A DNA stretch of 64,000 nucleotides, taken from the IMG/VR virus record IMGVR_UViG_3300021093_000004, one strand, 5' to 3'. Of this stretch, positions 53,935-60,631 are shown piece by piece. The translations under genes and the position numbers were made by a program. Position 1 is the stretch's first letter; the number at the start of each line of letters is the position of its first letter. The notes under the pieces were generated by a model. The model was not told the origin of the DNA and ran no database searches. It saw nothing but the letters and a program-made list of their open reading frames with translations. This DNA comes from a virus (Duplodnaviria; Caudoviricetes).

Positions 53935-54678
53935 TTGGTAGTAACGATTGTGATGAAATCCATGTCTTCTTTACAAATCAAGTACGCTACTAAGGATGTT
54001 GTGGGATTCGTAGTCAACAGCGAGCTTTTCTATTTAAAATTCGGACCAAATATTCCACAATTGTTCGATGAATCTCTGTCTGGTCTCGTTATACCAAATC
54101 TCGATTCTTGGATTCAGTCAAAGACTCAACAGCGATATTCTTATCAATCACTGCGAGACATGGCGTTAGCGTTCCATGCGGGAATTTCTGCGGCTTATAA
54201 TCTCGACGATGTGCATACGTTGTGTGATTCAACTATTCAGTTCACAGTTCATGAAGTTAACCATAATAGTTTGATTTATGATTATTCTCTGATATATTGG
54301 ATCGAAATTCTTGGTCCGGATCAAATGGAGCTATATCTGAAAAAGATTAGGGACAACTTTGTCCGTATTCGTTCGCAGATTGGTGATGATAAATTATACA
54401 ATAATCTATGCCGAATGTATAAAACCTGTCTACGCCAGCAACCTCATAACGCCAATGTGTGTGAAAAACTTATTAAGCGTTTGGGCAGGATGCCGACAGA
54501 GCCGAGCTATCCTAAGACAGACGAGACCGATCAGCAGGTATTATTGAACACAAGAGAAGCTGTACGAAAGTCACTCGGCACGCACTATAAGAATATACCC
54601 GACCACATAGTAGAGGCTGTAAATGGTATACAAAGCGGAAGACTACCAAGGGCCGAAGGAATTCGTCCATCTTCATAA
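53935..54678 (+). CDS. hypothetical protein
   Basis: 247-aa ORF. Confidence 0.6.
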   Translation: MVVTIVMKSMSSLQIKYATKDVVGFVVNSELFYLKFGPNIPQLFDESLSGLVIPNLDSWIQSKTQQRYSYQSLRDMALAFHAGISAAYNLDDVHTLCDSTIQFTVHEVNHNSLIYDYSLIYWIEILGPDQMELYLKKIRDNFVRIRSQIGDDKLYNNLCRMYKTCLRQQPHNANVCEKLIKRLGRMPTEPSYPKTDETDQQVLLNTREAVRKSLGTHYKNIPDHIVEAVNGIQSGRLPRAEGIRPSS

Positions 54679-57900: not shown

Positions 57901-60631
57901 CACATGGGAACAGCTAGAATCACTTGCCCGATCCGCATTAGAGAAACGCGGACTGAATGGCGTGTATAGCGAACGTCTCGATTTCGAACTCAAAGAGATC
58001 GATAAGCAAGGTGCGAATGCTTATTGGCTTGCACTGGTGTCTGCTGATAAAAAGTTTAAGTCCAATCCGAGCATGCTGGTATTGCCATGGTTGTTGGGAA
58101 TGGTTCAAGATGACCCCATTGCCAATCGTAAGGAACCGATGCTGTGCAGTGTGCGTGCGTCGGTGGTCAAAGAGCATTTGCGAACGCACGGCAAAATCCC
58201 ATCGGATCTGATTAAAGATCAGGACATGCCGGATATTGACCTCGATTGCTTGCCGGAAGCACGAGACCCGATTAAAGAATATGCAATGGAGCAATATGGG
58301 GTCGGATTGAATGATGATGGTTACGGTCCTGTGTGTAGTGTCGGCACGTGGCAGACATATAAATTCAAATCGGCGATCATGGACGTGTCAAAAGCTCTGG
58401 AAGCTGTTGATCCGGCAAGAGTTTTCGAACTAACCAAGAAACTACCGGAAGACGTAGACAATCTTAAAGATGGCGGATATGCTGCGTGCAAGAACCGCGT
58501 TATCGATGGAATTACTAATCAAGAAAAAGAATGTGGGACAGTTCACGATCAAGCTGTGTGTCCGTCGTGTGGGTCATCGGACACTGATGCTCCCACTATT
58601 GGTAAGCTTTTGCAAGAACACGCTGATTTAGCTGCGTTCAATCGGCTTTTTCCAACAGTTATAGACTATGCAGTGAAACTAGTTGGGCGTATCCGAAATA
58701 TGGGTATGCACGCCGGGGCGTTGATTATCGCCGATCGAACGTTGTATGGCAATATTCCACTCGCGAAGAATAGCAATCGTGGATACTGGGTGTCGATGTG
58801 GACAGAAGGCAGAAATACTCAACTGTCGAAATTTGGATATTGCAAATGGGACGTTCTTGGATTAAAGACTCTTGAATATATCTTCAGATGCTCTCAGCTT
58901 ATTGAACAAAATCGCGGTATTACATTTGGTCCAAATGCCGAAGGCTGGGATGATATTGACCCTCTTCAAAATCGTGCGGGGCATTATTTTGATGGCTGTG
59001 GGAAAAAGTGCTACATCAATCTGAATGATCCACACGCTCTCAAACTTGCTAACGAGCAGAAGACTGATGCTGTTTTCCAATTTGATACCGATCTAGCCAA
59101 AAGTTTTTTGGCACACGGTGTCCGGCATTTTAATGACTTGATGTTGATAAACGCTATGGGCCACCCTGGGCCGATGGCATCGATTCCTGAAGCAATGCAA
59201 AATCGAGATGATAAGAAGGCATTGTGGAAACAGAAGCTTCATCCGGATATCTTGCAAGTTCTCGAAGACACTTATGGGGTTATTGTCTATCAAGAGCAGT
59301 TGCAGGCCATATGGCAACGCTTGGCTGGGTTCACCGCGCCGGAAGCTCAGGAAGCCCGGAAAGCTGTTGCTAAAAAATGGGCACATAAATTGAAGCCGAT
59401 TCGGGCTAAATGGATCGATGGTGCCTCGAAAACTCTTGGTCGTGCTGAAGCCGAATTATGGTGGACCAAGATGGAAACGTTCGGGCGATATGCATTCAAT
59501 AAATCTCACTCTGTGTCATATTGTTTAGTGGCTCTTCGCTGTTTATGGTTAAAGGCCCATTTCGCTCCGGAGTTTTGGGCTGCGGTGATGAGCGATTGTC
59601 ATCCGGATAAACTGGTTAGGTATATGAGTGTTGCTCGTGCCGAAGACTGGCACCCGACTGATATCACGTATTCCGGGCGTGCTCCGAAAGTGCGAGCCAA
59701 AGGCATCACATTTGGAACGTTGAACATTGATAATCTCACCGTCAATTATACTGTTACTGATGATATTGTCAATCAGGGACTCATTGGAATTAAAAAAGTC
59801 GGTGACAAAGCTGCTGAAGTATTCGCCGGTCGTGGTAATTGGACTAGCATCGATGAATTTGTTGAGTCGTCAGAAGGCAGACGAAATAAGACTGTTTTAG
59901 AGCGATTCATCAAACTTGGCGCGTTCGGTTCAATTAAGGGTCATGAAAATTCTCAAGCATTGTGGCAGTGGTACCAATACCAATATTGCTCTGGTGTGAC
60001 TGCATTGAGGACGGAAATTCGGCAGAAACTACTGGCCGAAGATGGTTGGAATGACAAGACCATCAATGAGGAACGGAATCGACAGATTGACGAATATAAG
60101 CGTCAATTTCCGAATCGTCGTAAAATTCCGCCTAAATTCAATAATTGGGTACCTAAGCCTGACGACACCCGCGAACGAGTAATGGCGTTGTATCGGGAAG
60201 ACTTTAGCCAAGCCGAGAAACTTGCGTTTCAGAAAGAATTTTTGGGCTATTATCTTGACTCACCTTTGGAATTGTTTGCTATTCGCGGTGGATGCACTAT
60301 CAAAGATGCAAAAGCTGCGTGCATTGCTGGTGCTGAAGATGCTCATCTTGAGGTCATGGTGGTTGACCAACAGTTTGCGACTACGAAACCGCGTGACGGT
60401 CGAAGTGGGTCACAATATGTCAAACTGACTGTGACAGATGGCATTCAACGAACCATGATATTTATATGGAATAATGAATTATCTTGTCAAGATCCTCAAA
60501 ATTTGGTCGAAGGTGCAGGCATCCGCATGCGAGTACGATACGACAAGCAGCGTGGCACATTCAGTATGTGTCATGGTTCGAATATAATTAGCTTACGTCG
60601 CTATCAAGAAGACGAAAATGCAACTACCTGA
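57893..60631 (+). CDS. dnaE: DNA polymerase III alpha, C-terminal part (catalytic PDxD through OB fold)
   Basis: MPDIDLD (58226-58246), GMHAGALII, KWDVLGLKTL, AVFQF, TYGVIVYQEQ, YAFNKSH, LKAHFAPEF, GLIGIKKVG, LGYYL. Confidence 0.93.
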   Translation: MTDTWEQLESLARSALEKRGLNGVYSERLDFELKEIDKQGANAYWLALVSADKKFKSNPSMLVLPWLLGMVQDDPIANRKEPMLCSVRASVVKEHLRTHGKIPSDLIKDQDMPDIDLDCLPEARDPIKEYAMEQYGVGLNDDGYGPVCSVGTWQTYKFKSAIMDVSKALEAVDPARVFELTKKLPEDVDNLKDGGYAACKNRVIDGITNQEKECGTVHDQAVCPSCGSSDTDAPTIGKLLQEHADLAAFNRLFPTVIDYAVKLVGRIRNMGMHAGALIIADRTLYGNIPLAKNSNRGYWVSMWTEGRNTQLSKFGYCKWDVLGLKTLEYIFRCSQLIEQNRGITFGPNAEGWDDIDPLQNRAGHYFDGCGKKCYINLNDPHALKLANEQKTDAVFQFDTDLAKSFLAHGVRHFNDLMLINAMGHPGPMASIPEAMQNRDDKKALWKQKLHPDILQVLEDTYGVIVYQEQLQAIWQRLAGFTAPEAQEARKAVAKKWAHKLKPIRAKWIDGASKTLGRAEAELWWTKMETFGRYAFNKSHSVSYCLVALRCLWLKAHFAPEFWAAVMSDCHPDKLVRYMSVARAEDWHPTDITYSGRAPKVRAKGITFGTLNIDNLTVNYTVTDDIVNQGLIGIKKVGDKAAEVFAGRGNWTSIDEFVESSEGRRNKTVLERFIKLGAFGSIKGHENSQALWQWYQYQYCSGVTALRTEIRQKLLAEDGWNDKTINEERNRQIDEYKRQFPNRRKIPPKFNNWVPKPDDTRERVMALYREDFSQAEKLAFQKEFLGYYLDSPLELFAIRGGCTIKDAKAACIAGAEDAHLEVMVVDQQFATTKPRDGRSGSQYVKLTVTDGIQRTMIFIWNNELSCQDPQNLVEGAGIRMRVRYDKQRGTFSMCHGSNIISLRRYQEDENATT

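Follow-up and report, generated by a model that had tools for sequence, protein, structure and literature searches.

A probable two-subunit DnaE-type DNA polymerase, divided within the palm and without an intein, in an uncultured lake jumbo phage

A dnaE gene pair divided in the palm

By the textbook, a replicative polymerase of family C is a single-chain enzyme. We describe here two genes in a 64-kb stretch of viral DNA (IMG/VR record IMGVR_UViG_3300021093_000004; the whole 64-kb stretch is called the window below), designated dnaE-N and dnaE-C (N-gene and C-gene), whose products are probably the two subunits of a single DnaE-type (family C) polymerase with an active site built from both chains. 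The arrangement is of interest as it puts the nucleotide-binding loop and the metal ligands on separate polypeptides, in what is apparently the main replicase of uncultured jumbo phages that form a large and widespread group. The window belongs to an IMG/VR viral contig of 157 kb with a completeness rating of 43%, which implies a jumbo phage of about 350 kb. DNA of this phage is present in many lake-water metagenome runs, and among the public runs listed for it none is an RNA run; the source is an uncultured lake jumbo phage.

The N-gene (54623-56047, plus strand) encodes 474 amino acids comprising a PHP domain, the palm's N-terminal portion, the nucleotide-binding helices with the RGS loop, and a short conserved tail. 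Pfam recognized PHP (PF02811; E value, 1.9e-31) and positions 16 to 98 of DNA_pol3_alpha (E value, 4.9e-22) in its product. The PHP domain (54668-55303, plus strand) covers residues 16 to 227 by the Pfam bounds. All nine metal ligands (H18, H20, D27, H52, E77, H118, C173, D257, and H259), which we take to be such from active PHP domains such as that of Mycobacterium tuberculosis DnaE1, are present and invariant in 37 homologs, two of the nine lying slightly downstream of the Pfam bounds. By likeness to M. tuberculosis DnaE1, the domain is probably an active proofreader. The authentic nucleotide-binding helical subdomain (55751-55996, plus strand; residues 377 to 458, corresponding to Pfam profile positions 16 to 98 and including FDRFLSPSR) carries the RGS loop, R424-G425-S426 (55892-55900, plus strand). 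These three residues, as well as R452 and R458, are invariant in the 37 N-homologs, and no part of the N-gene is better conserved than the nucleotide-binding block, whose mean column identity is 0.85 versus 0.77 overall. The end of the gene reads ...PRGSAGGS... and terminates shortly past VTMP. What follows is a tail with the stop codon (55997-56047, plus strand), of which the GGYMLN..M part is conserved (tail conservation, 0.83) and the last six residues are variable. Homologs of N-half size numbered 805 proteins at an E value of ≤1e-10.

The C-gene (57893-60631, plus strand) encodes 912 amino acids and comprises a vestigial N-terminal domain, the catalytic palm, the thumb, the fingers, and the HhH and OB domains. 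It starts with GTG, preceded 7 nucleotides (nt) upstream by GGAG, and the same position is ATG in relatives. Pfam assigned to it positions 99 to 260 of DNA_pol3_alpha, beginning at residue 110, the finger domain (E value, 2.6e-30), and HHH_6 (E value, 1.4e-6). The 260-position palm profile (PF07733) is accordingly cut cleanly, with positions 16 to 98 on the N-gene and 99 to 260 on the C-gene. The catalytic strand P113-D114-I-D116-L-D118 (58229-58246, plus strand), at the onset of Pfam position 99, and K318-W-D320 (58844-58852, plus strand; in KWDVLGLK), which provides the third catalytic Asp and the Lys, are both invariant in 25 homologs; we take K318 and D320 to be equivalent to K553 and D555 of Escherichia coli. 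The two genes complement each other in their motifs: RGS and FDRFL..R are confined to the N-gene, and D114, D116, K318, and D320 are confined to the C-gene. Taken together, the pair has the N-terminal PHP domain, the GS-loop palm with three carboxylates (divided over two chains), the fingers, and the HhH and OB domains of DnaE proteins; a catalytic core on a single polypeptide, a further DnaE feature, is absent.

An AlphaFold model of the C-gene product aligned to structures of the Pol III alpha subunit with Z scores of 13 to 17, and OB-fold matches were obtained for residues 797 to 905. In the model of the whole protein, the N-terminal domain was left unaligned to DnaE structures and the palm was of low confidence: when the C-gene product was modelled alone, the predicted local distance difference test score (pLDDT) fell below 50 exactly in the palm (residues 107 to 154 and 267 to 324). 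Besides, residues 199 to 226 (58487-58570) form an insertion in the palm/thumb with invariant C199, C214, H218, C223, and C226, which is probably a zinc-binding module without a counterpart in canonical DnaE.

The duplicated nucleotide-binding subdomain

The N-terminus of the C-gene product is a genuine duplication of the nucleotide-binding helices. Its N-terminal domain (residues 1 to 108; 57893-58216) contains YSERLDFELKEIDKQGANAYWLALV and then MLVLPWLLGMVQDDPI, followed by DQDMPDIDLD at residues 109 to 118, and the RGS-less copy occupies residues 23 to 80 (57959-58132, plus strand). Among the best 150 cluster representatives of the C-gene, 109 start with an RGS-less copy located 70 to 130 residues before PDxD, and 13 are unsplit. 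In a broad-profile hhalign comparison, these 109 C-halves, which came from an exhaustive search with the C-gene, matched 13 canonical sequences over C-gene residues 23 to 80 with a probability of 96.4%, an E value of 1.2e-9, and a score of 54.7; reversed and 20 column-shuffled controls scored 8 to 16. Furthermore, in tblastn searches against unsplit phage DnaE genes, the N-gene aligned up to residue 468 and the C-gene aligned from residue 4 to 25 onward, and on MT835885 the two matches overlap by 96 codons. The Pfam palm envelope reaches into the copy in only 1 of 10 C-homologs.

The structural comparison led to the same assignment. Modelled alone, residues 1 to 108 form a helical domain with a pLDDT of 92.8. 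When this domain was compared with 48,161 PDB chains, all seven chains with a Z score of at least 5 were family C polymerases: 5LEW (M. tuberculosis DnaE1; 7.4), 9QPC (7.3), 7PU7 (7.0), 5FKU (6.8), 5M1S (6.6), 2HPI (5.4), and the PolC structure 3F2B (5.3). Unrelated chains in the same search reached Z scores of ≤4.5. A Foldseek search of the isolated domain against the PDB also ranked DnaE structures first, with E values of at least 0.23, which are not significant alone.

As judged from the alignments, the copy appears to be translated and under strong purifying selection in spite of having no RGS loop. It has 17 residues that are invariant in 36 homologs, and the RGS loop is replaced by an invariant F..NP..L.LP motif. 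The C-genes of relatives start at the same codon. An internal start at the Met that precedes PDIDID is not conserved, since one relative has Q there. The N-gene is truncated after "MP" and is not decayed. We also considered its tail as a decayed catalytic strand and rejected this, since a gap-free alignment inverts the polar/hydrophobic pattern.

An earlier reading made from the nucleotide sequence without database searches (the sequence-only reading) had placed the end of the N-gene directly past RGSAGGS..VTMP, and the open reading frames (ORFs) and residues are as it described. It had also noticed that the C-gene, 1.85 kb downstream, opens with a degenerate copy of the same region before MPDIDLD, which the broad-profile hhalign comparison and the fold search bear out. 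Of the "duplication and reciprocal decay" that it proposed, the duplication stands and the decay needs correcting: the copy retains its 17 invariant residues and has apparently been repurposed as an interface (see below), and the N-gene is truncated.

The C-half holds a fossil of a complete palm, and this sets the direction of the change from a fused gene to a split gene and not the reverse. The retained copy thereby reveals a route of splitting, namely, internal duplication followed by a break, and polarizes the event as the fission of a fused ancestor. Along this path, about 100 codons would have been duplicated internally and the gene would then have been broken between the copies. Once the gene was split, other genes could have settled between the halves: three in this phage, and none or others elsewhere.

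Predicted assembly and alternative explanations

Modelled jointly, the two halves are strongly predicted to form the heterodimeric family C polymerase that the sequence-only reading had suggested. With the N-gene product and C-gene residues 1 to 520, the interaction prediction score from aligned errors (ipSAE) was 0.84 (0.84, 0.82, and 0.86 in the individual runs), and the best control gave 0.00. The runs had at least 90% of the contacts in common, and the partner pLDDT was 89. This supports binding between the N and C products at the level of the models. The predicted interface comprises the helices and RGS loop of the N-subunit (residues 396 to 427) and its tail (residues 456 to 468 and 471 to 473), together with the catalytic strand (residues 105 to 120) and the copy (residues 31 to 65) of the C-subunit; residue 463 of the N-subunit is predicted to contact residue 35 of the C-subunit, and residue 464 to contact residue 106. 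Of the copy's 17 invariant residues, 12 fall within the predicted interface, compared with 4.7 expected (P = 7e-5). This enrichment implies that the copy is not decaying but has been conserved, likely as a docking module.

We propose that the N-subunit would supply the PHP proofreading domain, which is probably active, and the triphosphate-binding RGS loop, and that the C-subunit would supply the three catalytic carboxylates, the thumb, the fingers, and the DNA-binding HhH and OB parts, so that the assembled pair would act as a polymerase. The break falls between the helical subdomain that binds the nucleotide and the strand that binds the metal, and it arose from duplication of that subdomain. 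The copy on the C-subunit would most likely serve as a docking module by clamping the N-subunit at its helices and conserved tail, and docking of this kind would allow the halves to assemble noncovalently without an intein. If so, the copy represents a natural, intein-free way of holding the halves of an enzyme together, which may be of interest in protein engineering.

Several points weigh against this reading. The direct BLASTP comparison of the two overlap segments was weak (E value, 0.36), as was a narrow-profile hhalign comparison of the copy (E value, 0.021), and a profile of the C-gene N-terminus searched against PDB sequences returned only spurious matches at E values of at least 0.17 and no DnaE. 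The calibration of ipSAE, in which 58 out of 80 solved complexes and 2 out of 110 mismatched pairs attained the mark, counts only as a rough one because our own alignments were used in the complex prediction. Moreover, the complex score may be partly the model's memory of single-chain DnaE structures, and the halves of split genes tend to pass in this way. The clamp geometry, with the authentic loop of the N-subunit over the aspartates of the C-subunit, is one that we infer from contact lists.

It is improbable that the two proteins instead act separately, the C-gene product being the polymerase and the N-gene product a free PHP exonuclease or pyrophosphatase. The C-gene does hold all three catalytic carboxylates and all DNA-binding domains, and PHP domains can act on their own. 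However, nucleotidyltransferases of the Pol-beta fold require a GS triphosphate-binding loop, which the C-gene does not have, and its palm was not confidently folded alone. In addition, the RGS loop and FDRFL..R, invariant within the best-conserved block of the N-gene, would be useless to a stand-alone PHP enzyme, and linkage of the N and C genes was seen in all clades examined. We consider it highly improbable that the locus is a broken, nonfunctional dnaE and that replication depends on a host polymerase or on a gene resembling PolA. An ORF of the latter kind lies outside the window (G000:C1:79609-80916; L014:688-1995); it encodes 435 amino acids weakly resembling the C-terminal part of family A polymerases (34.8 bits; E value of 0.003 with Taq Pol I) and is conserved in two relatives. 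Yet it is only 435 amino acids long and barely at the Pfam threshold (34.8 versus 34.3 bits), whereas both dnaE halves are intact ORFs, their catalytic residues are invariant over hundreds of homologs with 40 to 87% identity, and the split architecture is stable across clades; the invariant positions also argue against a ratio of nonsynonymous to synonymous substitutions (dN/dS) near 1. We found no full replicative polymerase other than the split DnaE.

The two remaining explanations concern the gap itself. The sequence-only reading had described the split as free of an intein, and this agrees with our results: Pfam found no Hint or intein domain in either the N-gene or the C-gene, no Cys or Ser follows the canonical end of the N-gene, and DQDM rather than HN precedes the catalytic strand at MPDIDLD. 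It is very unlikely that the N-gene tail and the C-gene N-terminus are remnants of the two halves (IntN and IntC) of a dead split intein that holds the subunits together. In favor of such a relic, relatives carry true split and contiguous inteins in dnaE, and the N-gene has a short conserved tail that is noncanonical. Against it, the C-gene N-terminus is all-helical, in contrast to the beta-rich Hint fold, and is homologous to the polymerase's own nucleotide-binding helices. The inteins detected by the same Pfam search in L006, L009, and P0146 serve as a positive control for the intein-free palm split. The tail also has no Cys or Ser at its +1 position and the extein is not preceded by [HS]N, whereas the true intein sites of L006 and L009 show both, and the palm split is without intein hallmarks in every member. 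It is scarcely credible that the gap disappears from the RNA or the DNA through an intron or a rearrangement, or that it is an assembly artefact. The sequence-only reading had named a spliced or misassembled gap as a possible flaw, which was not borne out: no Rfam intron or RNA family was found in 54000-61500 at an E value of ≤1, and contigs from four lake-water runs tile the region without joints, single contigs, for example those of X18 (55665-57031 and 57440-59999), bridging both gene borders. Furthermore, the gap is filled by three conserved, tightly packed ORFs, and splicing would yield a protein with the subdomain present twice. Considering the above, we favor a single polymerase of two noncovalently associated subunits.

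Distribution, known systems, and genomic neighborhood

Conservation in relatives, which the sequence-only reading had suggested as a check, is evident both in close relatives and in distant clades. The layout of N-gene, three small genes, and C-gene occurs in 8 of 8 related viral contigs (52 to 75% identity). In a 408-kb relative (G001) with a completeness rating of 100%, the N piece and the C piece occur exactly once each, and no match to family B polymerase (PF00136) was found in G000, G001, or G002. Distant clades of huge phages have the same break and the same copy, with other intervening genes or none: in the L027/L028 clade the halves are adjacent, in different frames and separated by a 2-nt spacer, and in the L025 clade two opposite-strand genes lie between them. 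The N-halves of these clades end in ...TRGCVTGCTFEV and ...ARGGRMAKLRF..., at the same break point. The split is an old architecture common to hundreds of metagenomic phage proteins and several clades, and is neither local nor recent. A blastn search of the locus against 50,697 phage records gave no match. Among cultured phages, the DnaE of Pbunavirus is unsplit and PHP-poor, and in that of Gordonia phage LilyPad the break comes behind the PHP domain, at a different site.

In a FastTree phylogeny, the window fell into a clade of 55 rows that are all split (support, 100). Split and unsplit members occur together in a second clade, which includes the unsplit DnaE of LR756511 (a 595-kb phage), and the tree, computed with FastTree only, needs at least three changes between split and unsplit states. 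The unsplit member (L023; LR756511.1:335853-339402, from an uncultured 595-kb huge phage) is a DnaE of 1,183 amino acids with a normal RGS loop that lies within a clade of split C-halves. Its placement could reflect refusion, several independent splits, or an error in the tree. It hints that the architecture may cycle between split and fused states through recombination of the authentic and vestigial copies.

The closest published precedent is the split "minimal" Pol III alpha described in group 2.2 (T4-like) jumbo phages by Iyer, Anantharaman, Krishnan, Burroughs, and Aravind in 2021 (PMC7824862). As in our phage, the nucleoside triphosphate (NTP)-binding and the Mg/template-binding subdomains lie there on two proteins, without an intein, and are predicted to reconstitute one enzyme (PMC7824862). 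That version, however, consists of the catalytic core only and has neither PHP nor any other Pol III domain; the genes for its halves lie at distant places, and it occurs beside a family B polymerase (PMC7824862). The enzyme described here differs from what is reported there in being full size (PHP, fingers, HhH, and OB), in having its halves 1.85 kb apart, and in that no family B polymerase was found even in the complete 408-kb relative. Besides, the C-half keeps a diverged second NTP-binding subdomain, of which the relevant passages of PMC7824862 make no mention.

Other divided polymerases differ more clearly. The cyanobacterial dnaE consists of two genes whose products are joined by a naturally split intein, as cited in PMC3919608. 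There, the protein is repaired covalently by trans-splicing, whereas the break in our phage runs through the active site and the association must be noncovalent. The cyanobacterial split site lies elsewhere in the protein than the palm break found here. The jumbo phage PhiKZ has a split family B polymerase, DNAP-N/DNAP-C, whose two polypeptides form a stable 1:1 complex and for which the RNase H-clamp subunit Rhc, an RNase H-domain protein, is an accessory factor (Basu et al., 2026 preprint, PMC13648687). Both are jumbo-phage polymerases of two polypeptides, and an RNase H-fold gene sits between the halves in our phage. They nevertheless belong to different families (B versus C), no duplicated segment has been reported for PhiKZ, and the RNase H-fold protein here is small and probably inactive, with no established link to the polymerase. 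Dassa et al. described in 2009 (PMC2677866) fractured genes that carry split inteins, with an endonuclease gene between the pieces. This arrangement is seen in relatives at other dnaE sites (L009, RG/S; L006, K537/S538; slashes mark the junctions here and below), in contrast to the palm split, which is without intein halves. Single-chain bacterial DnaE proteins (E. coli, 2HNH/5FKU; Thermus aquaticus, 2HPI/4IQJ; M. tuberculosis, 5LEW/7PU7) have the same domain order and catalytic residues; unlike the enzyme described here, each consists of a single chain with a single nucleotide-binding subdomain. The divided dnaE genes that surveys of family C polymerases in bacteria mention are only intein-split or frameshifted ones, and a full-size split DnaE with a duplicated subdomain did not turn up in our literature searches.

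The window also contains a PurZ-like ORF on the minus strand (32016-33161), whose best PDB matches were archaeal PurA (2.4e-39), S-2L PurZ (7.9e-38), and phiVC8 PurZ (2e-36). The sequence-only reading had named the polymerase as the candidate for incorporating Z, on condition that purZ is active. This gene makes the split DnaE a ready candidate for learning how a polymerase outside family A copes with 2-aminoadenine (Z). Published work reportedly indicates that Z incorporation need not depend on polymerase selectivity. A doubtful idea, offered as a speculation, is that the detachable N-subunit is a regulated or exchangeable module of a phage-specific holoenzyme, that docking through the copy governs at which times the polymerase is active and possibly the choice between dZTP and dATP, and that the three intervening gene products are further subunits.

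The N-gene and the C-gene are separated by 1,846 nt, and the five genes of the locus are packed tightly, all on the plus strand, with the stop codon of intervening gene 3 overlapping the start of the C-gene. A terminator scan found no plus-strand terminator-like site between the genes; a terminator-free gene string is a weak hint of cotranscription. Intervening gene 1 (56077-56619, plus strand; 180 amino acids) encodes a helical protein with no Pfam or PHROG match and no confident fold, and it has homologs in the equivalent position in L003, L005, L006, and L009. Intervening gene 2 (56616-57080, plus strand; 154 amino acids) has an RNase H fold, matching RNase H families among ESM Atlas structures with template modeling (TM) scores of 0.77 to 0.84. 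The alignment shows that the first catalytic Asp and the other catalytic residues are not conserved among relatives, and by this criterion the protein is probably inactive; it does keep a conserved C-terminal Q..YDSGT motif. Intervening gene 3 (57130-57900, plus strand; 256 amino acids) has two C2H2-type zinc fingers behind a conserved N-terminal region (Pfam zf-Di19; E value, 4.4e-10; plus other matches) and has homologs at 8 of 8 related loci. Pfam recognized no homing-endonuclease domain in the three genes. The RNase H-clamp precedent of PhiKZ (PMC13648687) makes it worth asking whether the intervening genes encode accessory subunits.

Inteins were observed elsewhere in dnaE of the relatives. 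The N-gene of L006 (IMGVR_UViG_3300045256_000294; 2145-5972) is an ORF of 1,275 amino acids with two contiguous inteins, PG/C...VHN/CEIY and AND/C...SSN/CHY, at the GCEIY and NDCHY motifs of PHP (Pfam Intein_splicing, Hint_2, and LAGLIDADG_3), and its C-gene (7986-12893) is fractured at K537/S538 (FNK/C ... VHRN/S), with an ORF of 575 amino acids of no known family between the pieces. In L009 (IMGVR_UViG_3300033075_001437), the N-gene (4476-6779) is fractured exactly at RG/S (PRG/C ... SSN/SAGGS), with an ORF of 153 amino acids in between, which looks like a split intein with an intervening gene (a "fractured gene"). The C-gene of L009 (9026-15526) is interrupted near residues 347 to 351 by about 6.5 kb with several ORFs, and no obvious intein signature is present at that junction. 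P0146 has an intein with a LAGLIDADG domain.

A short way upstream of the polymerase genes, the window encodes a 464-amino-acid ORF (52486-53880) assigned by Pfam to Volactin (PF25216; E value, 6.9e-43), an actin-like family. The replication genes are flanked by a family 2 glycosyltransferase (50757-52181) and a cytidylyltransferase of the CMP-sugar type (63192-63950).

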